Assembly: GCA_965222225.1 (NCBI GenBank)
Contig: CBDCTK010000002.1
Coordinates: 4,218,126-4,282,125, forward strand
Direction: 5' to 3'
DNA from: Candidatus Poribacteria bacterium
GTDB taxonomy: Bacteria > Poribacteria > WGA-4E > JAJDTR01
DNA: 64,000 nucleotides
Program-made: the position numbers and the translations under genes
In this document: in pieces, positions 488 through 63,470 of the stretch
Numbering within the stretch: the first letter of the stretch is position 1
Layout: each line of letters begins with the position of its first letter
The notes under the pieces: generated by a model
The model's database searches: none
Told to the model about the DNA's origin: nothing
What the model saw: the letters and a program-made list of their open reading frames with translations, nothing else

Positions 488-676
488 AATCTCTATCGCA
501 CTCGTTATTCACTCGCTTGATCCCCGCTGGGGCTTTGGTGCACGGGGTTTTGGCGTTTCTATACACCTTCGGGATCTCTATCGCACTCGCTATTCGCTCC
601 CTTGATCCCACGCTGGGGCTTTTAGAGGCTGGTGCGCAGTGCGCACCCTACAAATGTACTTTTCAAACAGGTTCTT
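488..676. repeat. Copy of the dispersed modular intergenic repeat. It has two 'ctctatcgcactcg...cttgatcc...gctggggcttt' units and ends in the hairpin ggtgcgcagtgcgcacc followed by ctacaaatgtac.
   Basis: Sequence is shared with copies at 2741, 6871, 18324, 19565, 24891 (inverted), 51123, 52951 and 63341. The track ORF 352..678 runs through it and is rejected. Confidence 0.7.
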
Positions 677-713
677 AAAGTATCCTCAACCGCAAGAATC
701 ACGCTGTTCAAGC

Positions 714-1868
714 TCATGAGAGTGAACTCAGTTGATTGGGATGTTCGGGTTTGGTTCTCGAAAGCACGACTTCTGCCACCGTTAACCCTTCCTCAAGAAG
801 CGGCTTGACATCGGCAATATCGGAGGCTATCTCGACTGCCGTTCCCTCTTTTGCAGGGGTGCGCAGGAGAACTTCCCTGCCATCGATCCCTTGATCAGTC
901 AACAATGCGTCGCTATGAGTACTCACGAACACCTGTCGTCGCCGTCTTCGTTGCATCTTCGAAATCAGGGCGGCGAGTTGCGATACAATGCCGGCGTTCA
1001 AGGAAAGTTCGGGCTCCTCCAGTAGGAGGACGGACTCACTTTCAAGAAGCGTCCAAAGTAGCCCCAGAAGACGAAGTGTGCCGTCAGAAAACTGATCTTC
1101 GCGTTGCCAGCCCGCATTTGGACGCCAGTGGGAGTAAAGCGCCTGCAGGTGAGGACGGCCGGTAGATTCGTCACGGATGAATTCCAACTGCTCAAGCTGA
1201 GGCACGGCAAATTTGAGCGCTTGCTCAATAGTTTTTAAGCGTGACCGACGCGTTTTTGGCGTGATGCCCGCAACCCTCTCAAGAAATCCCTGCCCAAACG
1301 GGTCATCCTCAATGGCTCTTCCCTGAATCGAATTAGCAAACCGCAAGAGTTGAGGTACTAAATGAAGGTAAGTCACCGTTTGGAGGAAACGCGCGATTTC
1401 GCGAAAATCGGCGATGACATTGATCTGCTCAAGAAAGGTCTGCGTCAGTCGATCACGATCGGCTTCATCTTCTTCGGTTGGCCTAGCTAGGAGTTGCGCG
1501 CCGTTTTTCCACACGCACTCATGCGTGAGATAGGTGTGGCGGTGACCTCGTGGTTCTTGTCGAAATCCTAACGAGTATCGCCAAGTTGCGGAAGTGTCCG
1601 CATCGTCTGCAAGATGAATCTCAATCGTAATTTCCGGATCTCTCCGCGCCGCTAGATTTCGGATTTTGGAGAGGCCGCCCCGGTCCTTGACGGCTTTTTG
1701 AAAACCTCCGCCTTCAGACTTTACGACATCTCGGAGAAAACGGAAAATGTCAAGAAGATTCGATTTCCCGGACGCATTTGCGCCGACGATGAATTGACGT
1801 TCGCTGAGGTGAACATCAATCTCCCGAAAATTTCTCCAGTTCTTGGCGACGAGACGATTAATAATCAT
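714..1868 (-). CDS. AAA/ABC-type ATPase of the OLD/RecF-like AAA_15/AAA_21 kind, a stand-alone ATPase typical of defence islands.
   Basis: N-terminus MIINRLVAKNWRNFREIDVHLSERQFIVGANASGKSNLLDIFRFL holds a Walker A motif (GANASGKS). C-terminus has LLLEEPELSLN (Walker B / D-loop like) and VFVSTHS (H-loop). Length is 384 aa with no fused nuclease domain. Confidence 0.6.
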   Translation of the reverse strand: MIINRLVAKNWRNFREIDVHLSERQFIVGANASGKSNLLDIFRFLRDVVKSEGGGFQKAVKDRGGLSKIRNLAARRDPEITIEIHLADDADTSATWRYSLGFRQEPRGHRHTYLTHECVWKNGAQLLARPTEEDEADRDRLTQTFLEQINVIADFREIARFLQTVTYLHLVPQLLRFANSIQGRAIEDDPFGQGFLERVAGITPKTRRSRLKTIEQALKFAVPQLEQLEFIRDESTGRPHLQALYSHWRPNAGWQREDQFSDGTLRLLGLLWTLLESESVLLLEEPELSLNAGIVSQLAALISKMQRRRRRQVFVSTHSDALLTDQGIDGREVLLRTPAKEGTAVEIASDIADVKPLLEEGLTVAEVVLSRTKPEHPNQLSSLS

Positions 1869-2222
1869 GGCGTCTCCTTAAGTTTTTCTGATTGTCTTCG
1901 TGTGCTAAAATCATTTACCTCAGACGCTATATTCGTGTAGATTTCTTTGCTGCTTTGATCACTTTGATGAGGTACTCAATGTCTCCAAGAGTGACATACG
2001 GCGGTTGCTGCATTGCCTTGATAAGGCGTTGAGCACTCGCATTTTTTCGGTCGGTAGTGGCGCCGATTTATCCTCAGGTTGTTCGATTAGCATTGTGGCT
2101 TGCTGCTGCAATTCCGCTTTTCGCACGGTATCGTTCCTCCGTTTGCCAAATCCGAGGGAGAAGTGGTCTGTTTTACGATGCTAAATGCGTAATTCCCATG
2201 GTATTGGCTTTTCCCGTTCAGA

Positions 2223-2498
2223 CTAGGAGCGATAGGCTCTGCCACGCTGATAGATGGTTCTAATAATGCACTCCCGGTTCATTGTGTCTACACTGTAGAC
2301 AATCCGATAACTTCCGACGCGGTATCGGTATTGTCCACGATACTTGCCCTTCAATTTGACGATGTTTGGTCCGAACAGTGGATTCTGGGCTAACAGAGCA
2401 ATCGCCCGATTTACTCGGCGCTTCATATTGGTATCAAGCGCGTTATAGTGTTTCTCCGCCTCGGCGGTGAATAGCACATTAAATATCGCTTTCAACAT
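2223..2498 (-). CDS. Type II toxin of the RelE/ParE family.
   Basis: 91 aa, MLKAIFNVLFTAEAEKHYNALDTNMKRRVNRAIALLAQNPLFGPNIVKLKG...YRYRVGSYRIVYSVD...IIRTIYQRG. This is the ParE/RelE fold pattern. It overlaps the upstream antitoxin gene by 20 nt. Confidence 0.75.
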   Translation of the reverse strand: MLKAIFNVLFTAEAEKHYNALDTNMKRRVNRAIALLAQNPLFGPNIVKLKGKYRGQYRYRVGSYRIVYSVDTMNRECIIRTIYQRGRAYRS

Positions 2499-2736: not shown

Positions 2737-2740
2737 TTTG

Positions 2741-2819
2741 TCTGAATCGCGGATTCAGGGATCTCTATCGCACTCGTTATCCACTCGCTTGATCGGATTA
2801 AGGGATTACGCGGATTGAG
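2741..2819. repeat. Partial copy of the dispersed modular repeat. It includes the near-palindrome tctgaatcgcggattcag, which abuts the toxin-antitoxin start codon.
   Basis: gtctgaatcgcggattcagggatctctatcgcactcgttatccactcgcttgatcggattaagggattacgcggattgag shares modules with 24891-25020 (inverted) and 3291-3352. Confidence 0.6.
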
Positions 2820-3223: not shown

Positions 3224-3290
3224 AATTTTCGGGAGAATGTCGCGATTCGGAGATCGCTCCTACAGAACTAGGGATCGGAGCGTGTTGCCT

Positions 3291-3352
3291 GCATCGCGGA
3301 ATGGCGGGGATTCCATCCTTGATTTGATTAAAGGATTACGCGGATTGAATTC
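3291..3352. repeat. Member of a second repeat module (ggcggggattccatcc...attaaaggattacgcggattgaattc).
   Basis: Related copies at 4684-4735, 6678-6762, 2790-2819 and 53161-53220. The 53161 copy contains the perfect hairpin ccatcttcga...tcgaagatgg. Confidence 0.5.
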
Positions 3353-3419: not shown

Positions 3420-4643
3420 TTAGGTCTTATCGTTATCTTGCAACGATTTTGCGGCGAAAATGGCCAAACGTAATTCTTCTCCAAAGAGTTCATATAGAGG
3501 GGTTTTGCCGCTGAGCGCCTTGCTTTCATTGAGAATAATTCCGACCCCCTCACCCCTACGCTCCAGAAAGTGTCGCCTTGCTACATGTTTCTTCATATTA
3601 TCGTCTAGCGTAGTTTCTGACAGTAGGCGAGCGAGCAGTTCGTTACGCGTCGCTTGGTTGTAGGGCAAATCGTCCACCGTTAAGCTATTTGCCAATGCAC
3701 CCGGCGAATAGAGTTCTAGCCGGTCCGTGAACATAAACAGGCGAATTTTCGATCCGGCTTTTGAATAATCTCTATGTACAACTGCATTAACCAGTGCCTC
3801 AAAAACAGCTCTCATGCTGTATTGCGATCGTTCTATTCTGCCAATCTCCTTGCGAGCGGAGACTTGGTTATATCTTTCAACAAATTTGAATGCATCCACA
3901 ATCTGGCGATCCAGCGGTCCCCTAAAATCCTTAGCATCAATCTGGTAGTTCGCATCCTTTTCCACGCCATTGTAAAATACGGCTTGAATGAAACTGTTAT
4001 AGAGGTAATCGTCGGGGCTATCATGACACATCAACAGACCGGCTACCGAGGCGCGGTATTCATGACCATCTTTGACCAGCAATCGTCTTTTAAGTAGTAA
4101 ATCTTCTATCTTCTCACGATCAGCCGCATCCTCTGTGATAAATCGCTGATACAGCTTTTCCCTTAATGTTTCTTTGCGAGTGTTCGGGACAAACTGCTCA
4201 TCAAAAGAGATTCTATGTGCTTGTGATCGGCTTTGTAACAATCGCGCCAACTGCTCGGTGGCCATCTCTCTTTTACTGCTGCCTTGGCGGATGAAATAAC
4301 CGTTAGATGATTTATGAACAAACGGGCTCCGAGGCACTTCGATTTTTAAGAGATTTTTATTATCAACTTGCAGTTTTTCTGTAACAATGTGAACCATAGG
4401 GTCAATGTTGTCTCCGCATATTTCAACTGCTGTTTTCTCTGTCCTATCAAGATTCTGGCGGTCAATACCGACAATTTCACTATCATCGTCAACGCCGATT
4501 AGTATCACGCCACCGTTCGCGTTGGCAAACGCAGCGATTTCATCGCCGAGACTCTCTCTGTGATGCAACTCTCTTTTGAATTCAATCGTTGAGTCTTCTC
4601 CCAGATATATTTTTTCAATGAGGTCGGTCAGACTGTCGAACAT
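3420..4643 (-). CDS. AlbA_2 (divergent AAA / Schlafen-type) DNA-binding domain protein with a C-terminal HATPase_c_4-like region.
   Basis: N-terminus LIEKIYLGEDSTIEFKRELHHRESLGDEIAAFANANGGVILIGVDDDSEIVGI matches the PF04326 signature (EfK ... AfAN..GG.l.iGv.d.g.i.G). Total length is 407 aa. Confidence 0.55.
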   Translation of the reverse strand: MFDSLTDLIEKIYLGEDSTIEFKRELHHRESLGDEIAAFANANGGVILIGVDDDSEIVGIDRQNLDRTEKTAVEICGDNIDPMVHIVTEKLQVDNKNLLKIEVPRSPFVHKSSNGYFIRQGSSKREMATEQLARLLQSRSQAHRISFDEQFVPNTRKETLREKLYQRFITEDAADREKIEDLLLKRRLLVKDGHEYRASVAGLLMCHDSPDDYLYNSFIQAVFYNGVEKDANYQIDAKDFRGPLDRQIVDAFKFVERYNQVSARKEIGRIERSQYSMRAVFEALVNAVVHRDYSKAGSKIRLFMFTDRLELYSPGALANSLTVDDLPYNQATRNELLARLLSETTLDDNMKKHVARRHFLERRGEGVGIILNESKALSGKTPLYELFGEELRLAIFAAKSLQDNDKT

Positions 4644-4788
4644 CGCTCATTCTCCAGATGAATACGCTATTATCTGCATCACGGATTGGCGGGGATTCCA
4701 TCCTCGATTCGAAATCGGAATTACTGGGCGCTGCATTCTCAGAAATTGCATTGATTGGATTGGTTAGGACACTGGTGCTGCCTTCGCG

Positions 4789-5178
4789 TTACCTAGGCGC
4801 ATCAAATATGAGAAAGACAAAGACGATGAAGGCAATTTCGATTAGGTAGAAGATAACGAACGTGACAGAGAAAATTGCCGATACCCAGCTACATTTTGGT
4901 TTGTCTTTGTGTTTGAGAAGATCCATCTTAAAGTCGGTATCGGATTGGACTCTGACCTCGTCGTATACTTTTCGAAATAGCCTTTCTTGCCAAAGGAAAT
5001 ATCCGTTCAAGATCCAAAAGCCCATAACGGGGAGAATCAACGCCAAAGCAAAATAGGGATTCTCAACCTCGTGTTTAGGGATCAACACCATGGCTGCCAC
5101 AATAATTATCATGCTCCAACTTTTTACCAAGAAACTGTTTCTTCCTAATCGGTTTATGACAGAATGGGTTATTTTCAA
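4789..5178 (-). CDS. Small integral membrane protein, paralog A of the gene at 10804..11235.
   Basis: 129 aa with 3 predicted TM helices. It is about 70% identical to paralog B (shared RLGRNS..VK.WS, NPYF.LAL.LPV.GF.IL.GYFLWQERLFRKVYD, QSDTDF.MD.LKH..KPKC.W.SAIFSVT.VIFYL.EIAF). The similarity extends about 40 bp past the stop. Confidence 0.5.
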   Translation of the reverse strand: MKITHSVINRLGRNSFLVKSWSMIIIVAAMVLIPKHEVENPYFALALILPVMGFWILNGYFLWQERLFRKVYDEVRVQSDTDFKMDLLKHKDKPKCSWVSAIFSVTFVIFYLIEIAFIVFVFLIFDAPR

Positions 5179-5671
5179 ATTCTCGACTGCCTTTTCAGTG
5201 CAGTTCGTGGTTTTTTACTCCAGTATCAAGTTTAGAAGCTGGCGATATATCGGGCTAGTTCATTCTCAGTTTATTTCCTAGTGTAATCCTTGGCTCGACT
5301 TTTTTGCATTCAGCAAGTTTAACAGACCGTGTAGATCAAACCATTCAGAATAACGGGTGAGATTTTAGCAATTTGGTCTGTTTTGCCGACCATTGAGAAA
5401 GTCTACCCTGTGGACGCGAATGCCTGTTTCACCCACCGCGGTGTATCGGGAAAGGTCGCCGGTGGTTTTTCGAACAGCCTTTCACCTATCAGGACATACT
5501 ATCGCCTACGTCGTCCATTCGGTTAATTGGTCGTTTGAAGTTATTTGATTACTACCCATTTAGTCGCTTGATCGCCATTCACTCCTTTAATCTCATGCTA
5601 CAAATGTACAAAGTCGATCTTAGGATTTGCCCGACATGCTAAGTTTGGAAAAGCACCGGGCAGGGAGCGGA

Positions 5672-6677: not shown

Positions 6678-6762
6678 ATTAGGGATTGGCGGGAATTCTG
6701 TCTCAAAGTCTGTATCACGGATATTCGCGGATAAAAGGATTACGCGGATAAAATTCTTCAGC
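6678..6762. repeat. Copy of the second repeat module.
   Basis: tctgtatcacggatattcgcggataaaaggattacgcggataaaattc. Confidence 0.45.
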
Positions 6763-6870
6763 GATTAGTAACCTAAGAGCTTGTTTGAATAATAGATAGT
6801 CAAGTCATGTCTGGTCATTTGAGGAAGGGCTTTTCATGTTCTTGTCGTCACACGCACACTATTCACCTGT

Positions 6871-7070
6871 CGGATCTCTATGGGAGCTCTATCGCGGTCA
6901 CTACGGGATCTTCTATCGCCTTCGTTAACCACTCTCAGTTGATCGCTCGTTATTCACTCGCTTGATCCCGCGCTGGGGCTTTTAGAGGCTGGTGGGATCT
7001 CTATCGCATTCGCTAATCGCTCATTTGATCGCAGTGCGCACCCTACAAATGTACTTTTCAAACAGGTTCT
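6871..7070. repeat. Full-length copy of the modular dispersed repeat ending in gcagtgcgcaccctacaaatgtacttttcaaacaggttct.
   Basis: Its last 60 nt are nearly identical to 617-676. It has multiple internal cgcttgatc units. Confidence 0.7.
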
Positions 7071-10514: not shown

Positions 10515-10570
10515 CTTCAAACACCTCGCCTTACTCAACCGCGCCTCGACAAGATTCACAACCGCCTCAT
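10515..10570. repeat. 56-bp copy (55/56 identical) of the 3' end of the methyltransferase gene, which lies at 14692-14747. Same orientation.
   Basis: cttcaaacAcctcgccttactcaaccgcgcctcgacaagattcacaaccgcctcat matches 14692-14747 (...aaacTcct...). Similarity ends abruptly on both sides. Confidence 0.7.
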
Positions 10571-10803: not shown

Positions 10804-11235
10804 TTAGGGAGCTGGAAGTGTTTTCGCATCAACTATGAAGAACACAAAAACCGTGAAGGCAATTTCCAACAAATAGAAGATTACGAGCGTGACTGAAAAG
10901 ATTGCCGATAGCCAGTTACATTTCGGTTTGTTTCTGTGTTTGAGCGGATCCATCTGAAAGTCAGTGTCAGATTGGATTCTGATGTCGTCGTAGACTTTTC
11001 GAAACAGTCTTTCCTGCCAGAGGAAATATCCGTCAAGAATCCCGAAGCCTAGAACGGGAAGAACAAGCGCCAAGACAAAATACGGGTTTTGTACATCGTG
11101 CTTAGCGATGAGTGCCATCGCCGCGATAATAAGAGCTAGGCTCCAAGTTTTGACCCACAAGCTGTTGCGTCCTAGACGGTCAATCACGGCTTGGATTATT
11201 TTCAAGTGTTCTACGACTTTTTCTGTGCCATTCAT
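10804..11235 (-). CDS. Small integral membrane protein, paralog B. Candidate toxin or effector (PanT-like?).
   Basis: 143 aa with 3 predicted TM helices. It is a paralog of 4789..5178 and lies 181 nt downstream of the Panacea-domain gene. Confidence 0.5.
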   Translation of the reverse strand: MNGTEKVVEHLKIIQAVIDRLGRNSLWVKTWSLALIIAAMALIAKHDVQNPYFVLALVLPVLGFGILDGYFLWQERLFRKVYDDIRIQSDTDFQMDPLKHRNKPKCNWLSAIFSVTLVIFYLLEIAFTVFVFFIVDAKTLPAP

Positions 11236-12009: not shown

Positions 12010-13335
12010 TTAGAGATTAAGCAGAATATCTTGAAGCTGCAATTCATCTTGTTGTCTCTTCCAACCCTCCGGCGGGACATAAACTTGAATGGTTACCAAG
12101 TCAGTTGCATCAGAGGGCAGGCGGGCTAAAATGATCTCATAGTCACTAAGTTTTCTTAAGTCACCTTGCTTTTCATCGAAAATTATAATCGCTTCTGGAT
12201 CGAGGCTATAGCTTTGACTTCCGTAGTTGGGGTTCCGGATGTGGAGCTTGTTAACAATTACATCATCGGGGTCGATTTCAAGATCTTCTGCAATTCGTCT
12301 TTCCCATTTCCGTATTTGCTCACCATCTGCTTGGTGGAGTCGTCTGTTGTCTATCGGATTCTGTATATTGTTTAATGATAATTCACCAATCATCTTGAAC
12401 AATCTTCTTTCATAAAGTCGTTCAAATATGTTGCGGGCATTTGCTTGGGCGCACCCTTTTAGGATATCAATCAGCCGTTCGTCATGATACCTCATGTAAT
12501 TTTCTATAAATTCGGATGTTCCATCATATTTGTAAAGTCGTTCCAGTTCCGTATTCTTCTCTCTGATCGCAAGTTCGATTCCGCGCACAATCATCGCATC
12601 AGAGATTGATCTTACCCGATGGTGATATACTTGTTGTGTCATGTGGTGTTTTGCAAGTAGAAGTTGTTCAAGGGCGAGAATACCTTCATCGCTAATTGCC
12701 AAAACTGATTCATGCCCTTTGTAGTGTACCTGGAATGACTCAATGATTTTCTCCAGATCGTAAATCCCATATTTTACGCCAGCGAAATAGGAATCCCGAA
12801 GTAGATAATCCATTTTGTCTGCATCCAGATCGCTGGAGACAATGTCACGCCGAAAGTCCTTCGTTGCCTTCCCTTTAATCATGTTAACGACGAAATCGCG
12901 TTCTTCATCACTAAGGATCGCGCAAATCTCAGTGTCATTGTTAACAATGTCAATTGTAACTTTCTCGTGGATTTTTTCCCGGTCTGAACCTTCACTCGCT
13001 TCGTTTGGTGCATGCTGATCCAAGAGGTATTCGGAAACGTGGCTAAACGGTCCATGACCAATGTCGTGTAGCAGCGCTGCAAGCCGAATCTGTTCGCGCT
13101 CCTTATCGGTTATCTTGAGCCGATTGCAGATATGTCCGGCGATGTGCATTACACCGATTGAGTGTTCGAAACGGGTGTGCAAGGTTCCGGGATACACAAG
13201 AAACGCCATCGCCAATTGGCGAATCCGACGAAGCCTTTGGAAAGCTCTGGTATTGACTAAATTAACTTCCTTTTCTGAGAGTGCAATGAAACCGTGAATC
13301 GGGTCTCGAATCTTATGCGCAGGTTTTTTCATCAA
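12010..13335 (-). CDS. HD-domain phosphohydrolase, dGTPase/SAMHD1-like.
   Basis: IRDPIHGFIALSEKEV..VNTRAFQRLRRIRQL ... TRFEHSIGVMHIAGHI ... LLHDIGHGPFSH. This is the classic HD motif with a dNTP-triphosphohydrolase-type N-terminus. Confidence 0.7.
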   Translation of the reverse strand: MMKKPAHKIRDPIHGFIALSEKEVNLVNTRAFQRLRRIRQLAMAFLVYPGTLHTRFEHSIGVMHIAGHICNRLKITDKEREQIRLAALLHDIGHGPFSHVSEYLLDQHAPNEASEGSDREKIHEKVTIDIVNNDTEICAILSDEERDFVVNMIKGKATKDFRRDIVSSDLDADKMDYLLRDSYFAGVKYGIYDLEKIIESFQVHYKGHESVLAISDEGILALEQLLLAKHHMTQQVYHHRVRSISDAMIVRGIELAIREKNTELERLYKYDGTSEFIENYMRYHDERLIDILKGCAQANARNIFERLYERRLFKMIGELSLNNIQNPIDNRRLHQADGEQIRKWERRIAEDLEIDPDDVIVNKLHIRNPNYGSQSYSLDPEAIIIFDEKQGDLRKLSDYEIILARLPSDATDLVTIQVYVPPEGWKRQQDELQLQDILLNL

Positions 13336-14438: not shown

Positions 14439-14683
14439 TATATTCTCCCATTATAGATGCAGTATTGTTTCAGATCAAGCCAATATTTTTCTAGGCGGAA
14501 TAAAGTTAACATCAATTGGCACGGGTGGTAAATCTAGTGCTCTATTATTATGATAGGGATTCGGAGAACATACAGCTATCTACATTCGGTTCCTGACCTC
14601 GGATTGAAACACTATCGTACATTGGCACAACCTTTCCATAGCACGCGGTTCTAATCCATGTAATCTGTTAAATTCGTGATTCA

Positions 14684-17600
14684 GATAGACTTCAAACTCC
14701 TCGCCTTACTCAACCGCGCCTCGACAAGATTCACAACCGCCTCATAAACCCCGTCCCGTTCCCCTTGCGTGAGGTCGAGGGCATCAAAGACGATTGCATC
14801 AAGGGCGCGGCGGTCATCAGATGGTTCCAGCATCTCCCATGAAGATGATGCGAAAATGGCTTCATCGTCAAACACGATTGTCGTTGGGTCTAGACAAAAC
14901 AATTCCGCAACTTCATAGGTCTGTATTTTCAGCAATCCTCCGCCGAAATTGGAACGGCCAGCCATATTCACCATAAGTTGAAACAAAGATGAATTCACGG
15001 AGACACACAAACGCAATGTCAAGCCTGAATCCGTGTGTACCTCTTGAAAGTTGTCGCTTGCGAAACAACTGTCCGGAGCATAAAGTGTTCTTGCTGTTGA
15101 AGAAATCAAGTAGTTGAAAGCAAGGTGTGGAATCCGCCGTTGCCCCAAATCCCACCATCGCGCCCGACCTCGGCAACTCGGCCTCTCATCAAATTCTTGC
15201 GACTCACCCCACTCAATGTATTTCAGCGCTGCCGTGCCGTCCAAGTCTTCTTTGTCTTTCCCGCAGATAAACAGCTTAAACTTCAGCCGGCTTGGGTCGA
15301 TTAGGATGCTTTTGCATTCTCGCGGGCTTTTGATGACAGGATTCAGGAACTCCTCCTCGATTTCCCATTGACGGATGGCGTCGGCATCAAGGTAAAAAAA
15401 CTCGTTTGCTCCCGTCGTAAAACCACGTCGCACCTCTGCAACATCGCCCAAACGCACCAGTTTGTCCCTTCCCTTCTTCAGAATTGTCCAGTAGATGTCG
15501 GGTGCGCGGAGGTACTTGCCGCCCCACTTGTCGCCGGTGTACTTTGCCGTGGCAGACTTATCTGTGGTTTGATTATCTCCGCCTGATTCCAGGAGCGCGC
15601 GTTGGGAGACGGGGAAAATGCGGTGTTCTTCCGTGCTCTTTCGTTCACTAGTCTCCTCAACCTCCTCGAAAATAACCGGTGACAGCACACTCTCAAAGGG
15701 GGTTTTGAACATCACAAACCGTGCGATCTCATCTAATCCCGACCAGCGTTTTTCGTCGGGTGCGGAGAAGAGGCAGATGACGGTGTTCACATCGGCGGAG
15801 GCGAAGGAGCGCCGCGACTGGTTGTCAATAATCTGCTTGATGTGGCAGTGCTTGAGGAGGAATTCCTGAAGGTCTTTTCCGTAGCCGACATCCAGCCACG
15901 AATTGGAGGTGATGAAACAGAACGAGCCTTTCGGATTGAGGAGGGAAAGTCCGTGAAAATAGAAATAGATGTAGAGGTCGCTTTTGGCGTCGAGCTTGTG
16001 GGAGACAGCAGCGGCGGGGTTGTCCGGTTTGATATCCTTCTCGCGTTTGTACCCGAAGAAACGCGGGAAGGCTTGATACACGGCGCGGGCAAGTTTTGTT
16101 TTGTAGGCTTTCTTGTTAGCGGTTGTAATGTCTTCGCGCGGGAGCTTCGGATCAGCGATGTTCTCCTGCCGTACGTACGGCGGGTTGCCGATGACAATAT
16201 CGAATCCGCGTTTATCGTCGGAAAAGATTTCGACAAAGGCGATGTCCCAGACAAATGGCGAAGTAGGTGCGTTCGCGAGAGCGCCCCGTGCCTCTACAAG
16301 ACGGTCGTAGTCTATGGTCAACACCTCAATCTGTTTGCTCCATTCTATTTCTTGGCGTTTGAGTTTCTGGCTGGTTGTCTCATCAATTGTCCCTTCAATC
16401 GTGATCTGCTGTGCTTTGAGATCATTGATAAGCTCCTTTAGGTCGTCAATTTGCTTTTTGACATCTTCGGCGTGTGTATCCACGAGATCTCGGAAAAGGT
16501 TCAACTCTTCCTGTTCTAGCGCTTGTTTAGACCTGTAGCGACAGGTTTTGTCGTTGTTGAAGAATTTGAGTTTTTCAGTTTTGAGACGGGTGGTACGTGC
16601 TTTTAATGATCTCGGTATCCCACTGAAATCGGCGCGGATTTGGACGAGGTTCATGCCGCCGATTTCTTGAAGGAGGCCATCGCCGCATCGGATGTTGAAC
16701 GAGAAGTGCGGGAGGAGAGGCTCTATTCGTAATTGGAGTTCAGCGCGGGGAATATCGGCGTCAATGATGAGTGCCAGCCAAAGTCGCAGTTCTGCCACGT
16801 GGCACGCCCACTCCATTACGTCCACGCCGTAGAGATTCTTCCCGATGATGGCTTTCTTGCGATCGAAACTCAATTGTTCATACCCAAGTACGCGATTTGC
16901 TCTATCCTGCAGATCGTCAAGGATATGCAGCATCCCGACCAGAAATGAACCGGAACCGCAGGCTGGATCGACGACGGCGAGTCCTTTAAGACGCTCATCA
17001 AGCTGATTCCAGAGGTTCTTTTCTCGGAGTTGTTGATCTGCACGTGTTCTTTCGTCGGGTTCAAAGGCGAAAACGGCTTTGTAGAGGGCAGATTTATTTT
17101 CTTCTCCCAAGTGATTTGCCAGGTTGTCCACCAGCGCGTCGGCACATCAGGTCGATTTCTGTGCGAGGGGTGTAGAAGATGCCGGCATCACCCTGTTTAT
17201 CCGTCTCCTCCGAGACGTTGACCAGGCTCTCATACACCTTTCCAATCATCTCCGGATCGACGGCGACCTCTTGATCGAGCGGGCTGTCTTCGGCGATGGT
17301 GAAGTTGTAGCTTTCAAGGAAATTGAAAATACTCTTAAAGCGAGAGTCAGAGATTTGAAAGTCGTGTTGGCTGTCGAGGTCGTTCTCGGTGAACAGCCCG
17401 CCGTTGAGGTAAGGGGCTGAGGCTAACGCCCTTCGAATCTCGTCCGGGAAATGGCGGTGTCCGCCGTGGAATCTGTTATTGAACGCCTCAAAGAACATGA
17501 CGTTGAGCCAATGTTCAACGAACGAGTCGACCGGCTGATCTGTCGTCTGATAGGACTCCCAGAACGTCCGTAGAAAGTCGGTGTTGTCACCAAGCCAACC

Positions 17601-18287: not shown

Positions 18288-18323
18288 AATGCATTTTTTT
18301 GTAAGTTGGGAGTCGGGAATCGG

Positions 18324-18375
18324 AGGGGATCTCTATCGCACTCCTTATTCAGTCGCTTGATCCGTCCTACGGTAG
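18324..18375. repeat. Partial copy of the dispersed repeat.
   Basis: ggggatctctatcgcactccttattcagtcgcttgatccgtcc. Confidence 0.5.
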
Positions 18376-19018: not shown

Positions 19019-19099
19019 GAATAGGTGTGATAAGACTTACACAAATGCAACCCATCCCGTGAATATGATTCGTCACAGGTAGATTTAGGAGAGGCGAAA

Positions 19100-19441: not shown

Positions 19442-19564
19442 TTCTCAGGACTTGAATGTTGTGTACGCGAACAAATGTGATAGGACGTACACAATTGAGC
19501 CCTCAAATCCGTCTAACTCGGAGATTTCACCGTAGGGATAAGGAGGATTTCAATCGCGGGGGAT

Positions 19565-24828: not shown

Positions 24829-24890
24829 AGTTCAGACCTCAAGTGATTAAGCGAGCAAATGGATTGACCGAGATCGATTTAGCTGATAAT

Positions 24891-51050: not shown

Positions 51051-51122
51051 CCTAGGTTACCAGTAGCAGACACACTCCAATTCCCCTTGCGTAGATTACA
51101 GCACGACGAAGGGATTTTTATC

Positions 51123-51185
51123 AGGATCTTCTATCGCCTTGGAATCACTATCGCACTCGTTATTCGCTCTCCTGTTCGTTCCTAC
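51123..51185. repeat. Partial copy of the dispersed repeat immediately upstream of the gene at 51201.
   Basis: ggatcttctatcgccttggaatcactatcgcactcgttattcgctctcc. Confidence 0.5.
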
Positions 51186-51200
51186 TACGTTTTAATAACT

Positions 51201-52790
51201 ATGGCGAAACTCAAGGACATCAATACCACCGATATTCGCGACGCAATTCGACTAGGCTGCCGCACGATGTCCAACGTGTTCAATGCGGATGACAATGATG
51301 TTCCGTTCTTCGGCGCTTACGTGCGTCCCCATCCACCGGCTCTTGTCTGGAGCGACTTGCACGAGGAGGCGCAGATTCCCGGCAGGCATCTCAACGCACT
51401 ACTGGCCGCAGAAAGCATCACCGGTGTGGAGATTGATGAGCAGGTTATTGAAAAGCACGCGCGAGCGGCATTCTTTGCCTATTCCGGTCCGATGCCATTG
51501 CCTCTGAACAGGGAAACAATGGACGGTGTGCCAATCAAGCTGTTTTCACACAACGTCCGCGAAGGCTTCCACGCGCTGCATGCCCTCGTGCGTTACCGTG
51601 ATTGCAATCGTGCTAGGGAACTTGCCGAAGGTAGCATCGCCATTATTCTGGAACGTTGGGATCCTGACGATGGCTGGGAAGGCGATTACCTTGAGGGAAA
51701 ATTCGGACTAAAGATTTGGGGAACGATTGGCTCAACCTATCGAGATGGGAACATACTTATCGGCTTAGGAAGATCTGTGGGGCCACTGGTGAAATACTAC
51801 CGCACAACAGGCTATGGTCCCTCGCTTGAGTTGGCATTGCGGCTGAAAGATAGAATGCTTCAAGATTGCTTCTGGGAAGAGGGATGCTACGATGCGGAAC
51901 GGTTCGGACACCATGCGCATTCGATTACATCGTCGATGACTTCGCTGGCGCAATTGGCAGATCTGTTGCAAGATCCGGCGCTAATGAACCGCGTGAAAAC
52001 GTTCTACGACAACGGCCTTTGGAGTTTTCGCGACCAGGTCGGCTGGGCAAGTGAGCACGCGGAAGGAGGCGATAGGCCCGACATGGGGGAGATGAACACC
52101 ACCGGCGACATCCTGGAAACCGCACTCATTCTAGGAAGCTGGGGTTTTACGCAATACTATGAAGATGCCGAGCGAATCCTTCGGTGTCATATCCTTCCAT
52201 CCCAACTCCGCGACATCTCTTTTTGTGAGGTTGGGGAAAATCCAAATAACGAAGACCGACTGCATGACGTTCCCAATCGACTATACGGCGCATTCGGCTT
52301 TCCAGCGCCATACGGCCACGCCTCACTAGGCGTCGACGGAATCTGCTTCAATCTGGACGTTGTAGGAGGCACTGTCGGATCGCTGTGCGCCGCCTATGAA
52401 TCAATCACGCGTTTTGCTGAAGCCGGACACCGGGTGAACCTGCTATTCGACCACGAAACTGATGCCATAAAGGTTGAATCTCCCTATACACACGAAGCAT
52501 TGTATGTTAGACTGAAGCGGAGTGGACCTCTATTTGTACGAATTCCGTCGTGGGTGAAAACAGGAGAGCTAGTCGTTACGGGAACAGACCAAACGCCAAT
52601 CCTCAACAATGGTTATGCTTTCTTCCCTCAACCGCCGGTGAATCGCCCTATTGGGATTCGCTTTCCGCTGTCGGAGCGTGAGATGATCCTAAAGCATACA
52701 GCCCGAGATATTCGCGTTCGACTCGGAGGAGACACGGTAGTCGCAATGGAAAATTTTGGGGCAGACCTTACGTTTTTCGATCCACTTTAA
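51201..52790 (+). CDS. Hypothetical protein, possibly an (alpha/alpha)6-type glycoside-hydrolase-like enzyme.
   Basis: Starts MAKLKDINTTD and is 529 aa, with no secure motif. Flanked on both sides by dispersed-repeat copies. Confidence 0.35.
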   Translation: MAKLKDINTTDIRDAIRLGCRTMSNVFNADDNDVPFFGAYVRPHPPALVWSDLHEEAQIPGRHLNALLAAESITGVEIDEQVIEKHARAAFFAYSGPMPLPLNRETMDGVPIKLFSHNVREGFHALHALVRYRDCNRARELAEGSIAIILERWDPDDGWEGDYLEGKFGLKIWGTIGSTYRDGNILIGLGRSVGPLVKYYRTTGYGPSLELALRLKDRMLQDCFWEEGCYDAERFGHHAHSITSSMTSLAQLADLLQDPALMNRVKTFYDNGLWSFRDQVGWASEHAEGGDRPDMGEMNTTGDILETALILGSWGFTQYYEDAERILRCHILPSQLRDISFCEVGENPNNEDRLHDVPNRLYGAFGFPAPYGHASLGVDGICFNLDVVGGTVGSLCAAYESITRFAEAGHRVNLLFDHETDAIKVESPYTHEALYVRLKRSGPLFVRIPSWVKTGELVVTGTDQTPILNNGYAFFPQPPVNRPIGIRFPLSEREMILKHTARDIRVRLGGDTVVAMENFGADLTFFDPL

Positions 52791-52950
52791 GCTCGACTTT
52801 GTACATTTGAGCGACACAACAAACGGTCTCAATCAAGCGTTGAAGAAAAGCAGGGACATTTTGATTATCTGGCCTAGATTATCTGGCCTATTTGATTGAC
52901 CATTGAAAAAGTCCGCCCCGAGCGGTTCTAATTCCTATACAATCTGTGAA

Positions 52951-53113
52951 ATCTCTATCGTCCTCGCTATTCGTTTGGTTGAACTCGCACTGGGACTTTG
53001 GTGTGGTGCGACTCGGTGTTGCTATACACCTGCCGCGCCTCCGGCGCTTTCAAAGGCTGGTGGGCAGTGCCCACCCTACAAATGTACAAAGTCGAGTTTA
53101 GAGCCTGTTTGAA
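52951..53113. repeat. Full copy of the dispersed repeat with terminal hairpin ggtgggcagtgcccacc followed by ctacaaatgtacaaagtcgag.
   Basis: Followed by a second-module copy at 53161-53220 with the perfect 10-bp stem ccatcttcga/tcgaagatgg. Confidence 0.65.
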
Positions 53114-53387
53114 TAATGGATGGCAGAATAATTCTGATTAGCTAAATAGCTGGGTTTCACTGGGAGCTCTATCGCGAGCAAAGGGGATTCCATCTTCGAA
53201 TTCATGATCGAAGATGGCTCCTACAGAAGACGCACAATAAATTGCGCTACTGCAAACCGAACTTGGTAGATCCTATCTGCATGATTCTTAGTTGCAATAA
53301 CTAAAATCCCAATTCCTTAGCGCCACCACAGCTTAACACACTCACATCGACTATCGAGACCACTAAAACAGTCACGGGGGTACACAT

Positions 53388-59533: not shown

Positions 59534-60286
59534 ATGGACATTGAAGCGTTAAAAACAGAACTGGACGAGTACGGTTTCGTAGTTCTTCCCGACCTGATTC
59601 CGGCACCGGATGCCCGACACATGGCAAAGCGGCTGATGGAAATCATGGATCAGATTCCCGATTCCCACGATTTCAGCGGCGCCAATGAAACGAGTCAACA
59701 CCTGCGGGGTGTTTTCAACTTTCTGCACCCTAGCGAGTTCGATCTTTTTGAGCAGATAGTTATAAATCCCGTTCTCCTTGAATTGGCGGACTACAAACTT
59801 GGCGATGGCTTTCAACTCAACACGGTCGCAGCACTCTGGCGCAAACCCGGTGCGACAATCGGCAAACTCCACGCCGATTTGCCGATGTTGACGAGGCGTG
59901 AGACTCCGTTCCCCACCCCCAAGGTGTGCTTTCTGCTCAACTGTCTATGGATGTTGGACGATTTCACTAAGGAAAACGGTGCCACGCGCGTGATGCCTTT
60001 CAGCCATCACGCCGGAATCGCCCCTAGAGCCGAAGTAGACTACCGGCATTTGGTGCCAATCGAAGGACGCGCCGGATCGGTTGTCGTGCTCAATGGTCCG
60101 GTTTGGCATGCCGCTTGGTCAAACACGACGAAAGATGACCAACGTATTGGCGCCCCCGTTCCCTATCATGCACGGTGGATGGATCCCACCGATCCGGCTC
60201 TGGGATGGTGCCTCCATAAACGCAGCGTCCGGGACAAATTCTCGCCCATGATGCAAGAGCTAACGCAACACGTAGAAGACGACTGA
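59534..60286 (+). CDS. PhyH-family dioxygenase.
   Basis: LDEYGFVVLPDLIPAPDARHMAKRLMEIMD, KLHADLP and VWHAAWSNT. Confidence 0.5.
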   Translation: MDIEALKTELDEYGFVVLPDLIPAPDARHMAKRLMEIMDQIPDSHDFSGANETSQHLRGVFNFLHPSEFDLFEQIVINPVLLELADYKLGDGFQLNTVAALWRKPGATIGKLHADLPMLTRRETPFPTPKVCFLLNCLWMLDDFTKENGATRVMPFSHHAGIAPRAEVDYRHLVPIEGRAGSVVVLNGPVWHAAWSNTTKDDQRIGAPVPYHARWMDPTDPALGWCLHKRSVRDKFSPMMQELTQHVEDD

Positions 60287-60531
60287 TTAGCCGTGTAGGG
60301 TGGGCACTCCGTATCAGCCTTTAACCATCCTCGGGTTTTGCACTTCGGTTTGTAGTAGCGCAATTCATTGCGCGTTTTTTGGAGAAGTTAGTTCTGTTCG
60401 CGAACCAACAACGTTACTCGCGATAGAAGGACGCGATCGGTGTCGAACTACGAAAATCCTACTGTATTTATTCGTGTTAATCGGTGCCCTTCTGACTTCT
60501 CGTTCCCCTCAACTCAAGGAGGAAACAAACA

Positions 60532-61347
60532 ATGGCACTCACACCCCAACAATGCGAATTCTTCGATTCATTCGGATATCTCGTGCTGCCCGGCTTACTG
60601 GCGGACGATGTCGATTGGATGGTTGAAGAACATCGCAAGGTTTTTGAACAGAACGGCATCGTCCATGATGGCACGAAACGCTCTTTCATCGTGCCGTTCA
60701 TAGATCAAACCGAGAAGCTATGTACCTTACTCGACCATCCCAAGGTGCTTGAGGTGCTCGGATCTCTGTTAGGCGATGATTTCAATTACGTCGGCAGCGA
60801 TGGCAGCTACTACAGTGGCAGCACAAATTGGCACGATGACGGCGGACATCGGCCCGGCGGGCTCACCTTCGCGAAATTCCATATCTATCTTGACACGCTG
60901 ACACGCGATACGGGCTGTATCCGCGTCATCCCCGGCAGTCACCTATCAGGCGGATGGAGAGACCAACTCAGGAAGAACATCTGGCTGCAACCGTTCAGCG
61001 AAACTATAGGTGTCCTGGGGAGCGATATTCCTTGTGTCGCAATTGGAAACCAGCCTGGGGACGTCGCTGTGTTAAATCACACCACCTATCACGCAACCTT
61101 CGGGGGCGGACCGGCACGTCGTCACTTTGACCTCAATCTGTCAAGTCGCGCAAAAACGGAAGAAGAACTCGCAGACCTTGAGAAGTTCATCCTACCGAAA
61201 GAACGAACAAAAGAGAAACCCAGCAAATACGCGCCGGGGGTACAAGACATTATGCTCGGCACGGCTACTCCCGAGCGCATGCGCCACCTTGAGCAAGTCA
61301 TTGAGCGCGAAAACCTCGATCGTGCGGCATGGGAAGCTACACAATAG
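60532..61347 (+). CDS. PhyH-like Fe(II)/2OG oxygenase, tandem paralog 1 of 4.
   Basis: MALTPQQCEFFDSFGYLVLPGLL...NWHDDGGH...NHTTYHATFGG. Follows AAGGAGG. Confidence 0.6.
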   Translation: MALTPQQCEFFDSFGYLVLPGLLADDVDWMVEEHRKVFEQNGIVHDGTKRSFIVPFIDQTEKLCTLLDHPKVLEVLGSLLGDDFNYVGSDGSYYSGSTNWHDDGGHRPGGLTFAKFHIYLDTLTRDTGCIRVIPGSHLSGGWRDQLRKNIWLQPFSETIGVLGSDIPCVAIGNQPGDVAVLNHTTYHATFGGGPARRHFDLNLSSRAKTEEELADLEKFILPKERTKEKPSKYAPGVQDIMLGTATPERMRHLEQVIERENLDRAAWEATQ

Positions 61348-61435
61348 TTATTGGTTTAAGGCGGAATCGGCAAGCAGCAAATCGCCGCTGGAGCGAAAGG
61401 CTGTTCAATTTTCGAAATGAGGTACATAGCCTAAA

Positions 61436-62227
61436 ATGACGCTTACCCCCCAACAATGCACTTTCTTCGAATCATTTGGCTATCTAATTCTGCCGGGTTT
61501 ATTGACGGATGACATTGATTGGATTATCCGGGAGCATCAAAAAGTCTTTGAGCAGGAGGGAGTCGTTCATGATGGCACAAAGCGCTCCTTTATTGTCCCT
61601 TTCATTGACGAAAGCAAGCATCTGTGTACTCTCCTCGATCATCCCAATGTCGTCGGGGTGCTCAGCTCGTTGTTGGGCGACTTCAACTACGTAGGGGGTG
61701 GCGGCAACTACTACAGCGGCGACACGAATTGGCACGACGACGGAGGACATCGCATCGGAGGTCTGGTTTTCGTCAAGTTTCATATATATCTCGATCCACT
61801 GACGCGCGAAACAGGTTGTATCCGAGTGATCCCAGGCAGCCATCTAGATGGCAAATGGAGGGACCAGCTACATAAAATCCGCCTTCAGGCGTTCAGCGAG
61901 GATTTGGGGATTCGAGGAGACGATGTCCCGTGTGTTACCGCTGAAACCGAACCCGGCGATGTCGTCGTCTTGAATCACACAACGTATCACGCTTCCTTCG
62001 GCGGCGGGCCGGCACGTCGTCATCTTGACCTCAACGCCTCCAGTCGAGCGAGAACCGATGCCGAGTTCAAAGATCTCGACAAATTCATCAAGATTATAGA
62101 AGGCTTCAAACGGCAAAAGGAGCCAACGGGAGCAGAAGACATGATTCTCGGGACCGCCTCTCCCGAACGAATGCGCCACCTTGAACAGGTAATAGAACGC
62201 GAAAACTATCTTCACAACGCTCCGTGA
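61436..62227 (+). CDS. PhyH-like oxygenase, tandem paralog 2.
   Basis: MTLTPQQCTFFESFGYLILPGLL...NWHDDGGH...NHTTYHASFGG. About 75-80% identical to paralog 1. Confidence 0.6.
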   Translation: MTLTPQQCTFFESFGYLILPGLLTDDIDWIIREHQKVFEQEGVVHDGTKRSFIVPFIDESKHLCTLLDHPNVVGVLSSLLGDFNYVGGGGNYYSGDTNWHDDGGHRIGGLVFVKFHIYLDPLTRETGCIRVIPGSHLDGKWRDQLHKIRLQAFSEDLGIRGDDVPCVTAETEPGDVVVLNHTTYHASFGGGPARRHLDLNASSRARTDAEFKDLDKFIKIIEGFKRQKEPTGAEDMILGTASPERMRHLEQVIERENYLHNAP

Positions 62228-62350
62228 TTGTAGGGTGGGCACTGTCCACCAGTCGTTGAACTTGCATGTGAGATGTTTTGCGCATTACGCAATGCTTCAT
62301 CGCCATTCCCGTTACGCTTTGATATTCAACACAAAGGATGCAACCCTAAA

Positions 62351-63142
62351 ATGACTCTTACTCCGCAACAATGCACCTTCTTCGAATCATTTGGCTATCT
62401 GATTCTACCGGACTTGATGACGGACGACGTCGCCTGGATAATTGAGGAGCATCGGAAGGTTTTTGAGCAGAAGGGCGTCAATCACGACGGATCAAAACGC
62501 TCTATGATCGTCCCATTCAGCGATCGGAGCGAGCGACTCTGCACGCTTTTAGACCATCCGAAGGTACTCGGTGCGCTGAAATCCCTACTCGGCGATGATT
62601 TCAACTACGTGGGTGGCGACGGGAACTACTACAGCGGCGAAACCGGATGGCACTCCGACGGTGGGCATCAAGTCGGTCTCTTCGCCAAATTTCATCTCTA
62701 TCTTGACCCGCTGGCACGGGATACAGGAAGCATTCGCGTGATTCCCGGCAGTCACCTTATCGGGCCGTGGAGAGACCACCTTCAGCGGACTCGTCAGCCA
62801 AACGAACTATTAGGAGTACCGGGACGCGATGTTCCATGCATCGCCGCTGAAACCGAACCCGGCGATGTTGTTGTGTTCAATCATAACATTTACCACGCCT
62901 CTTTCGGTGGGGGCACTGCTCGCCGCCACATGTGCCTCAACGTGACGAGCCGAGCAAGAACCGAAGCCGAAATCAACGAACTTGACAGCTACCTACGCCC
63001 GGGCGGAAGACCGAAGCATTGGCCCGGAAAATATGCGCCCGGCGCACAAGACATCATGCGCAATACGGCTTCTCCCGAGCGGTATGTCCATCTGGAACAG
63101 GTAATTCAACGCGAGCAGTACTATATAAACGCAGCGCAATAA
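62351..63142 (+). CDS. PhyH-like oxygenase, tandem paralog 3.
   Basis: MTLTPQQCTFFESFGYLILPDLM...GWHSDGGH...NHNIYHASFGG. Confidence 0.6.
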   Translation: MTLTPQQCTFFESFGYLILPDLMTDDVAWIIEEHRKVFEQKGVNHDGSKRSMIVPFSDRSERLCTLLDHPKVLGALKSLLGDDFNYVGGDGNYYSGETGWHSDGGHQVGLFAKFHLYLDPLARDTGSIRVIPGSHLIGPWRDHLQRTRQPNELLGVPGRDVPCIAAETEPGDVVVFNHNIYHASFGGGTARRHMCLNVTSRARTEAEINELDSYLRPGGRPKHWPGKYAPGAQDIMRNTASPERYVHLEQVIQREQYYINAAQ

Positions 63143-63340
63143 ATTAAGGGAGCACCACGCACCCGCCTTTGAGTTTTGTCTATCTTTGTTTATCCCTTGT
63201 CGTTTGTGCGTCTTTTACCATCTACCAATAGGACTTACGTAGCAACAGGAGGCAGCTCCGGTGGGCAGGGATTAAGCAAGCGATAGCGCGTGCGATAGAT
63301 ATGTTTTTGCCCTGCCACGCATGGGCGGTCGCGATCGGGA

Positions 63341-63470
63341 GAGGATCTCTATGGGAACCCTATCGCACTCACTACAAGATCTACTATCGCCTTCGTTATT
63401 CACTCAGTTGATCGTTCGCTTGATCGCTCCTTATCCAGTCGCTTGATCTTACAGGGATTGTGCGCAGAAA
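63341..63470. repeat. Copy of the dispersed repeat between PhyH paralogs 3 and 4.
   Basis: gaggatctctatgggaaccctatcgcactcact...cgcttgatcgctccttatccagtcgcttgatctt. Confidence 0.55.

Follow-up and report, generated by a model that had tools for sequence, protein, structure and literature searches.

Nested GTAG-tagged palindromes, IS5-type miniature element ends and a structured 38-nt module in the intergenic spacers of a Candidatus Poribacteria genome

The defining features of GTAG-type repetitive extragenic palindromes (REPs) and of REPtrons have been set out by Nunvar (2010, PMC2817692) and Di Nocera (2013, PMC3733652). Some REP families carry long structured loops (PMC3733652), and the bacterial interspersed mosaic elements (BIMEs) of Escherichia coli are mosaics of REPs and other short conserved motifs (PMC2817692). 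Here we describe the dispersed repeats of a 64,000-nt stretch of a Candidatus Poribacteria genome (contig CBDCTK010000002.1, positions 4,218,126 to 4,282,125, forward strand), hereafter the window. Its spacers are very probably a mosaic of nested or abutting non-autonomous elements: a REP hairpin (module E), a MITE, or miniature inverted-repeat transposable element, derived from an insertion sequence (IS) of the IS5 family, and a small structured unit (module B).

For comparison we used 116 loci of eight kb each (925 kb, the related loci), taken from a species-representative genome collection with a 22-nt degenerate pattern of module B. The pattern matched more than 116 stretches, all in metagenome-assembled genomes of Candidatus Poribacteria, from at least 11 assemblies including five closed chromosomes; a cyanobacterial source, suggested by the hairpin and the WD40 genes, was rejected on this result. 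The window is syntenic with CAXXCS010000005, with a gene DNA identity of 72–84%, and is not itself in the 116-locus set. All transposase and IS evidence comes from related species, whose loci bear L numbers. Module B was searched with R1, a covariance model of the module, run by cmsearch on the window and on a negative control of 951 kb of unrelated metagenome DNA (relatives of the melibiase protein at ≤67% identity, from unrelated habitats). The metagenome scan with this protein returned no close strains of the window, only relatives of ≤67% identity. Insertion borders were also sought by comparing the window with the orthologous spacers of L025, a route set aside because the spacers are too diverged; L025 has B and E where the window counterparts lack them.

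Module E (GGTGSGCAGTGCSCACC+CTAC) belongs to the canonical GTAG-tagged REPs. Its hairpin, GGTGSGC-NNN-GCSCACC, has a 7-bp stem and a 3-nt loop; it is clean at 631, 19656 and 53059 and imperfect at 60295 and 62230. In six of six window copies an unpaired GTAG stands at the 5′ side of the hairpin (CTAC on the other strand). The copies are as follows.

631–651, minus strand: E hairpin, GGTGCGCAGTGCGCACC+CTAC, 7-bp stem, 3-nt loop, GTAG on the minus strand
6991–7046, minus strand: E hairpin split by B, reading GGTG / B 6995–7030 / CGCAGTGCGCACC CTAC; R1 match at 6990–7036, E = 1.5e-12
19656–19676, minus strand: E hairpin, GGTGGGCGGTGCCCACC+CTAC
53059–53079, minus strand: E hairpin, GGTGGGCAGTGCCCACC+CTAC
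60295–60322, plus strand: degenerate E hairpin, GTAGGGTGGGCACT..., directly 3′ of the PhyH gene 59534–60286, from the inverted-repeat search
62230–62250, plus strand: E hairpin, GTAGGGTGGGCACTGTCCACC, 2 nt past the stop of the PhyH gene 61436–62227, from the inverted-repeat search

The uninterrupted counterpart of the split hairpin is the copy at 631–651. All window copies are extragenic, and a further 62–76 occur in the related loci, which were chosen for B; their k-mer consensus reads GTAGGGTG(C/G)GCACTGC(G/C)CACC. Stem position 5/13 covaries, being G-C in 42 copies, C-G in 28 and otherwise (unpaired) in 6 (n = 76), and a third compensated stem variant, GGCGCGC/GCGCGCC, is found in L202. Module E is not the only palindrome of its kind: k-mer assembly of the loci yields several different short hairpins, all with a CCTAC end (GTAG on the other strand).

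A motif screen of the related loci found one ORF (open reading frame) for a REP-associated tyrosine transposase (RAYT), in L034 (NCBIfam REP_Tyr_transpos, E = 1.8e-53). It carries the motifs DHLH, WE and YIHYNP (HUH + Tyr), the signature of RAYT subclass 2.2 (Quentin 2018, PMC6006769). Upstream lies an E hairpin with its CTAC facing the gene and carrying an IS5 tail; downstream, the TAG stop of the gene forms part of the GTAG of an inverted E copy, which is the classic arrangement (PMC2817692). These flanking REPs carry module B. A protein search added the RAYT loci L197, L201 and L202, and in four of the four genomes the RAYT has inverted E hairpins on either side, at a distance of no more than about 300 nt. 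Their stems are genome-specific and compensated (GGTGCGC, GGTGGGC or GGCGCGC), and the IS5 tail is absent from three of the four. The Poribacteria-like RAYT homologues share 68–97% identity, the next best matches being cyanobacterial RAYTs at 55–60%, and the gene neighbourhood is conserved (TPR, HD, RAYT, a 166-aa gene, Methyltransf_3). The RAYT would bind the folded hairpin with its GTAG on single-stranded DNA, cut and rejoin it, and so copy REPs in trans.

Several observations surround this locus. The RAYT is triplicated in tandem in L202 (1057–3082) and inverted within the same neighbourhood in L201 (2501–3076), which points to rearrangement between the inverted REPs at its sides. In Rippkaea orientalis PCC 8801 (L203 1340–1530), the closest cyanobacterial RAYT is followed by GTAGGGTGGGCAAA, 38 nt and TTTGCCCACCCTAC, twice over; the stem of this repeat is the same as that of module E and its 38-nt loop is unrelated sequence. 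The stem GTAGGGTGGGC is also tabulated for Haemophilus REPs (PMC2817692). A distant Y1-transposase-like ORF at L113 2760–3371 (HLHLI, YIHNNP) is flanked by the unrelated hairpins CTGCTGGATTGCCAAATCCAGCAG and CTGTGGATTTGTCAATCCACAG; it was set aside and may represent another REP-like system.

The tail, ttttcaaacaggttct, is the terminal inverted repeat (TIR) of an IS5-family insertion sequence. It pairs with GAGCCTGTTTGAA 160–620 nt away in 29 elements, of which 22 have matching 3-bp flanks (TAA-TAA in 11, TTA-TTA in 10 and TAT-TAT in 1). An intact IS at L028 4822–5772 (951 bp, 18-bp perfect TIR, TTA duplication, DUF4096+DDE_Tnp_1 transposase) has the TIR GAGCCTGTTTGAAAAGTC, identical to the ends of the MITE, and the tail acttttcaaacaggttct matches it. 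Tail pairing, 3-bp duplication and an IS with the same ends together identify the tail as the end of an IS5-family MITE. The MITEs are short, internally deleted derivatives of 160–620 nt without an ORF, which the DDE transposase of the full IS would move by cut-and-paste. The L028 IS has no E hairpin inside. The window has the MITE complete once and as a single end three times (at 662, 25081 and 53101).

6777–7069, unstranded: complete IS5-derived MITE of 293 nt with its TIR pair, between TAA 6774–6776 and TAA 7070–7072
662–677, minus strand: solo MITE end, TTCAAACAGGTTC then TTA, matching the L028 IS TIR
25078–25093, plus strand: solo MITE end, TTA + GACCCTGTTTGAA
53098–53113, plus strand: left end of another MITE, TTA + GAGCCTGTTTGAA, abutting the element 52785–53103

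The interior of the complete copy holds partial and complete B units and one E hairpin. In another related locus, L072, a DDE_5 transposase lies between two MITE-type ends (4234–5628).

For module B, R1 gave 11 matches at E < 0.01 and three weaker ones in the window, and none in the 951 kb of control DNA. The copies are listed below, the strand being the helix-forming one and the scores those of R1.

482–528, minus strand: B copy, 60.6 bits, E = 2.3e-13
567–613, minus strand: B copy, 61.3 bits, E = 1.6e-13
2754–2800, minus strand: B copy, 61.5 bits, E = 1.4e-13
6901–6950, minus strand: diverged B copy in the partial-B run 6872–6968, 31.6 bits, E = 7.8e-06
18322–18368, minus strand: solitary B copy, 62.9 bits, E = 5.9e-14
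19556–19602, minus strand: weak B-like unit, 16.5 bits, E = 0.064
24948–24994 and 24901–24947, plus strand: inverted cluster of a B copy (46.8 bits, E = 8.8e-10) and a weak unit (17.2 bits, E = 0.042), with inverted repeats
51137–51183, minus strand: diverged B copy close upstream of the gene that begins at 51201, 21.7 bits, E = 0.0029
52944–52990, minus strand: diverged B copy, 29.1 bits, E = 3.5e-05
63264–63309, plus strand: diverged B copy in the opposite orientation, 31.8 bits, E = 6.7e-06
63343–63448, minus strand: run of B and partial B (63372–63419 full, 43.5 bits, E = 6.4e-09; 63422–63448 partial, 18.8 bits, E = 0.016)

The last run is 86% identical to 6872–6934. Nine of the 11 confident copies lie on one strand, with gene orientation flipping between the left and right parts of the window.

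In the related loci nhmmer found 384 B copies, in which a 38-nt core ends abruptly against flanks that vary; 348 of them fall outside stop-free segments of ≥120 aa, though such segments make up 75.5% of the sequence. A single consensus is common to 11 genomes, and copies differ by 5.24 per 35 nt within genomes as against 5.58 between them, in species whose orthologous spacers are unalignable. Tagged hairpins of at least five kinds hold the module in a stem or loop; elsewhere it follows a GTAG directly or forms head-to-tail arrays. A GTAG lies ≤14 nt from its 5′ side in 110 of 264 copies and a CTAC on its 3′ side in 8 of the 264, so the structured strand of B is the one that carries GTAG. Adjacent copies share their orientation in 209 pairs and are opposed in 58, and 38 pairs have gaps of ≤10 nt. 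Scored as simple inverted repeats by perfect-stem matching, the flanks of B gave no signal (7 cases against 3.1 expected); the association with hairpins is clear once hairpin families and GTAG tags are scored. At one exact point of MITE copies that are otherwise paralogous, B is absent from the L108 copy and present in those of L015, L020, L035 and L074. On the five chromosomes its orientation does not follow position or GC skew.

On the active strand, B has the form GGGATC AA GCGAGT GAATA GCGAGT GCGATAGA GATCCC. The three strongest mutual-information pairs inside it are nested and antiparallel, and in an alignment of 150 distinct copies the inner helix (helix 2) is 98.2% paired, with three to four pair types at each pair (GU 86/AU 50/GC 12; CG 129/UA 9/UG 6; GC 112/CG 20/AU 16; UG 58/CG 46/UA 43). 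Covariation scores 0.316 in this helix, 0.205 in shuffles (none of 500 reaches 0.316) and at most 0.133 with slid partners. Between the covarying pairs, a tandem G·A/A·G is found in 146 of the 150 copies. The two strands are not equivalent: one is 98.2% paired and the other 73.7%, with 151 G·T wobbles against 4. This asymmetry places the constraint on a single strand and not on duplex DNA. The most conserved bases, ATCAA and GCGATAGAGATC, are unpaired. Thermodynamic folding alone was tried as a route to this helix and did not recover it.

These properties would be consistent with B acting as an alternative body or loop of a REP, recognised as folded single-stranded DNA and spread by RAYT-type chemistry, while replication slippage would build the arrays. 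This is the weakest step of our interpretation, and we give it somewhat less than an even chance. That B is a new type of ultra-small structured mobile unit, a hairpin with a tandem G·A core which a HUH enzyme of the RAYT type copies as single-stranded DNA at positions following a GTAG tag, or else a phylum-specific functional motif that selection keeps in hundreds of spacers, is possible but doubtful. If a RAYT copied it, B would be a parasite of REPs and MITEs, parasites in their own right.

An earlier note on this DNA had grouped the repeats into one family of interchangeable modules. The repeats are real: the strings it quoted were all located at or near their assigned positions, and B emerges from repeat finding in the window as a 10-copy family of 37 nt (GGGATCTCTATCGCACTCGTTATYCACTCGCTTGATC), alongside 4-copy families that correspond to the E tail, three copies of module C and an inverted cluster at 24885–25021. 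The single family, on the other hand, dissolves into separate ones that nest in or abut each other. Modules B, E, the tail and module F occur in many Poribacteria genomes independently of one another, and modules A, C and D have two to three copies in the window and almost none elsewhere. What the note had called MITE- or REP-like now falls into a GTAG REP (the hairpin + ctac) and an IS5-derived MITE (the tail). Its statement that all copies are intergenic stands except for two mechanical ORFs that overlap copies: 352–678, which is repeat DNA, and 51087–52790, which does so through a TTG-start extension. The sites it listed exist, but the list lacked the E hairpins at 60295–60322 and 62230–62250, the B copy at 63264–63309, the left half (from 6777) of the element ending at 7069, and the inverted-repeat partners at 52785–52809 and 5285–5302. 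Its dismissal of a CRISPR array is borne out by start-to-start spacings of 35 to 32815 nt, by the presence of both orientations and by units that abut. The note had also made the family depend on conserved structure, and the E stem and the inner helix of B both covary. Of the checks that it proposed, the search for target-site duplications gave 3 bp for the IS5-derived MITE and nothing for B.

The mosaic view of the spacers has to be weighed against several points. The window E copies are single, and those of the related loci occur singly or in tandem runs with diverse flanks, not as the inverted pairs of fixed short spacing (REPINs) that are thought to be the mobile unit. Neither a RAYT nor an IS5 transposase lies in the window itself, and mobilisation in trans in the source genome is therefore extrapolated from relatives; moreover, just one RAYT locus was present among the 116 B-selected loci, the other three coming from the protein search. 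No enzyme is linked to B, no ORF recurs near it, and no target duplication of B was seen. Some cases of B inside a hairpin are explicable by deletion rather than insertion (L044). Nearest-neighbour folding of B beats shuffles only slightly when the module is treated as RNA (z of −1.5 to −2.5) and not when it is treated as DNA (z about 0), and B densities in the 925 kb are biased upward because the loci were chosen for an exact B 22-mer. With these points counted in, we still regard the mosaic as very probable, and its effect on the host as probably neutral spacer filling for the most part, with occasional structural rearrangement.

An alternative is that B, and perhaps E, act mainly as RNA: hairpins transcribed within untranslated regions would serve in the stabilisation, processing or termination of messages or in protein binding, with their spread a secondary matter. 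Evidence of this type has led to the proposal of an RNA role for many GTAG REPs (Di Nocera 2013, PMC3733652), and this precedent counts in its favour. So do the wobbles tolerated on one strand of B only, the tandem G·A motif, which is common in structured RNA, and the mild sense excess of the structured strand (109 sense and 81 antisense copies between co-directional genes). Those same counts, however, leave 43% of the co-directional cases antisense; divergent flanking ORFs outnumber convergent ones (62 against 39); and 9 of the 11 confident window copies keep to one strand despite the flip in gene orientation. Neither E nor B has a T-run 3′ of its hairpin or a flag in the terminator scan, and B has no fixed orientation to genes, so the earlier note's suggestion that they are terminators lacks support. 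Only module F and the hairpin 60358–60373 are flagged, and terminator-like sites are not enriched over shuffles (10 against 8.6; 12 against 14.3). A search with the Rfam 15 covariance models gave no match at the gathering threshold and none at E ≤ 1. Single-stranded DNA hairpins read by HUH enzymes tolerate G·T pairs too. Taken together, a mainly RNA role appears improbable.

A somewhat stronger competitor, which we nevertheless consider unlikely, treats B as independent of the REPs, either with machinery of its own or as a protein-binding or structural DNA site selected by the host, REP hairpins and GTAG-adjacent positions being merely favoured targets. Some insertion sequences of the IS110/IS1111 type do target REPs. 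Besides many other sites, B occupies a loop or arm in no fewer than five tagged hairpins that are unrelated to each other, more than half of its copies have no GTAG nearby, its most conserved bases are unpaired, as expected of protein contacts, and its consensus is identical in 11 species whose orthologous spacers cannot be aligned. Yet no candidate gene recurs next to B in the 925 kb, where 749 clustered ORFs comprise ordinary paralogue families only; there is no target duplication, and no terminal inverted repeat beyond the 6-bp GGGATC/GATCCC. The orientation of B is also tightly tied to the GTAG strand (110 against 8), which fits a shared single-strand mechanism, and the REPs that flank the L034 RAYT carry B. 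Very improbable, by comparison, is the view that all modules including E are internal parts of DDE-type MITEs, with E beside the RAYT a coincidental insertion into a repeat-rich spacer. Three of the six window E copies do adjoin an inverted-repeat end of the IS5 type or a similar one, the same tail is found on the nearest upstream E copy of the L034 RAYT, and elements that some strains have and others lack contain two other tagged hairpins. This view fails because E flanks the RAYT on both sides in all four genomes, in genome-specific, compensated variants that are tail-less in three. The overlap of the L034 RAYT stop with the GTAG of the downstream REP, the intact L028 IS without an E hairpin and the other flanks of most of the 76 E copies all point the same way. 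Chance similarity or assembly artefact has practically no probability left, given E-values down to 6e-14 in the window, no match in the 951-kb control and the presence of the repeats in at least 11 independent assemblies, closed chromosomes among them.

Beside E, the MITE and B, the spacers of the window hold smaller modules and composite elements.

525–567, unstranded: module F, an E-like long hairpin between two B copies, GCTGGGGCTTTGGTGCACGGGGTTTTGGCGTTTCTATACACC; second copy at about 52990–53030
2742–2758, unstranded: module A, small hairpin CTGAATC-GCG-GATTCAG; inverted copy at 25001–25017
2800–2826, unstranded: module C, AAGGGATTACGCGGATTGA; further copies at 3330–3352 and 6737–6762
3303–3321, unstranded: module D, GGCGGGGATTCCATCC...; further copies at 4688–4716 and 53183–53220
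3249–3263, minus strand: tag and arm of a second GTAG-hairpin family, GGAGATCGCTCCTAC, with 45–69 copies in the related loci, common in Poribacteria
5285–5627, unstranded: degenerate element bounded by inverted repeats, arms AATCCTTGGCTCGACTTT / AAAGTCGATCTTAGGATT, 18 nt, 83% complementary
52785–53103, unstranded: 319-nt element with 25-nt inverted repeats CTTTAAGCTCGACTTTGTACATTTG / CAAATGTACAAAGTCGAGTTTAGAG, 92% complementary, containing B, F and E
53218–53261, unstranded: further tagged-hairpin family member, CTCCTACAGAAGACGCACAATAAATTGCGC...; inverted copy at 60344–60387 (44 nt, 84%)

Module F has 5–7 copies in the related loci, aligned across species, and is the only module flagged as terminator-like. 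The composite B-F-B-E block at 489–675 is 95% identical to L045 2094–2279, the genes of the two species being only 72–84% identical; either selection or transfer may lie behind this. Module A has two copies in the window and no full copy in the 925 kb, module C three and no exact copy, and module D two to three and almost none elsewhere; the D copy at 53183–53220 is the hairpin CCATCTTCGA..TCGAAGATGG followed by CTCCTAC. The element 5285–5627 contains a B fragment and CTACAAATGTAC, and the left arm of the element 52785–53103 overlaps the stop codon of the gene 51201–52790. After the first PhyH gene, within 60344–60387, the segment 60358–60373 reads GCGCAATTCATTGCGC then GTTTTTTGG and matches the terminator scan; it looks like a genuine intrinsic terminator and belongs to another small repeat family.

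Four strains with an identical RAYT, 97% identical in aligned columns, differ by indels that are repeat units. One of these is a 160-nt element, with GGAGATCGCTCCTAC inside it in L197 and a TA duplication: three of the four strains have it, and the empty site of the fourth reads ...aact TA atcg..., which speaks for recent mobility of elements of this class. The other indels change the copy number of two units, one of 75 nt and one of 23 nt that derives from B, and the RAYT locus of close strains shows, in addition, one inversion and one triplication. Such changes would fit the earlier note's idea of recombination hotspots. This comparison prompted the search for inverted-repeat ends. At L197 4360–4540, a 181-nt strain-specific insertion has the ends TACCATTTC / GAAATGGTA, TA(A) flanks and a tagged hairpin, GCGGGGCAAGATGCCCCGCCTAC; some REP-like hairpins therefore travel within larger MITEs.

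No tRNA was found in the window. The PhyH region (59534–64000) comprises five tandem dioxygenase paralogues with repeats in three of the four spacers: two have one E hairpin each, and the third has several B units in a row. Two DUF4377 genes in tandem (18605–19441, 84% DNA identity) are bracketed by the B copy 18322–18368 and the E copy 19656–19676. A WD40-repeat protein (40241–43003) is the source of 126-nt periodic direct repeats that are unrelated to the dispersed ones. The segment 714–17131 looks, from its predicted genes, like a defence or restriction island: it encodes an AAA_21 ATPase (714–1868), a Schlafen AlbA_2 + HATPase_c_4 protein (3420–4643), an HD + HD_assoc_2 protein (12010–13335) and an Eco57I/MmeI-type methyltransferase (14681–17131). 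It also contains internal duplications, of 4798–5097 with 10825–11124 (79%) and of 10515–10570 with 14690–14745 (98%).

Assemblies are the only source of knowledge on Poribacteria, which are uncultured symbionts of sponges. An inventory of their spacers, listing REPs with a RAYT, an IS5/MITE pair that looks active and, thirdly, a nested module, is an aid to genome annotation. The repeats explain spurious ORFs and strain-level indels and could serve as markers for strain typing. How REP-like sequences multiply is still unsettled, and in B there is a tiny hairpin with natural variants in the hundreds, strand-specific covariation and a defined GTAG position, and hence a ready-made set of substrates for testing what a RAYT recognises. 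If B is only a loop variant of a REP, this is ordinary repeat biology in a new phylum. In the literature searched, no paper linked Poribacteria with REPs, RAYTs, REPINs or MITEs, and the repeat sequences appeared in no relevant paper.

Compared with described REPtrons, the Poribacteria system has the same short palindrome with an unpaired GTAG head in module E, compensatory stems, an extragenic and clustered distribution, and a low-copy RAYT flanked by inverted E copies; the stem GTAGGGTGGGC is that of Haemophilus REPs and of the repeat beside a cyanobacterial RAYT. It differs in its host, a candidate phylum, in that the window E copies are singletons and not inverted dimers, and in the foreign 38-nt module that many E copies carry in or beside the stem, some of them being subterminal in a DDE-type MITE. 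As in the BIMEs of E. coli, spacers combine REPs and other motifs variably (B-F-B-E at 489–675; 6777–7069) and the RAYT is embedded in such a cluster, but REP orientation does not alternate regularly, and the non-REP motifs include a structured independent unit, B, and true transposon ends. MITEs derived from the IS5 family share with the tail-bounded elements a TIR identical to that of an intact IS, a length of 160–620 nt, the lack of an ORF and matching TAA/TTA flanks; the interior here is loaded with REP hairpins and B and is not a simple deletion derivative. Their 3-bp TWA duplication is like that of the Tourist/PIF-Harbinger MITEs of eukaryotes. The BOX elements of Streptococcus pneumoniae and the Correia elements of Neisseria are modular, TA-flanked intergenic MITEs with a variable number of a unit of about 40 nt (boxB). 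The Poribacteria repeats resemble them in modular build, with unrelated sequences and hosts, and neither is known to have a RAYT or REP component. In Nostoc punctiforme, small dispersed repeats (SDR) of tens of nt, with sharp borders and nested in hairpins or other repeats, were reportedly described by Elhai and co-workers in 2008; they are not known to encode an enzyme. By description, and not by sequence, B is likewise very small, dispersed, sharp-bordered and nested, whereas it is longer (38 nt), has a helix supported by covariation and is coupled in orientation to GTAG. The nearest analogues of B are the long structured loops of some REP families (PMC3733652) and the Nostoc SDR. Module E with its RAYT and the IS5-derived MITE are known kinds of system in a new host, and B may be a new variant.

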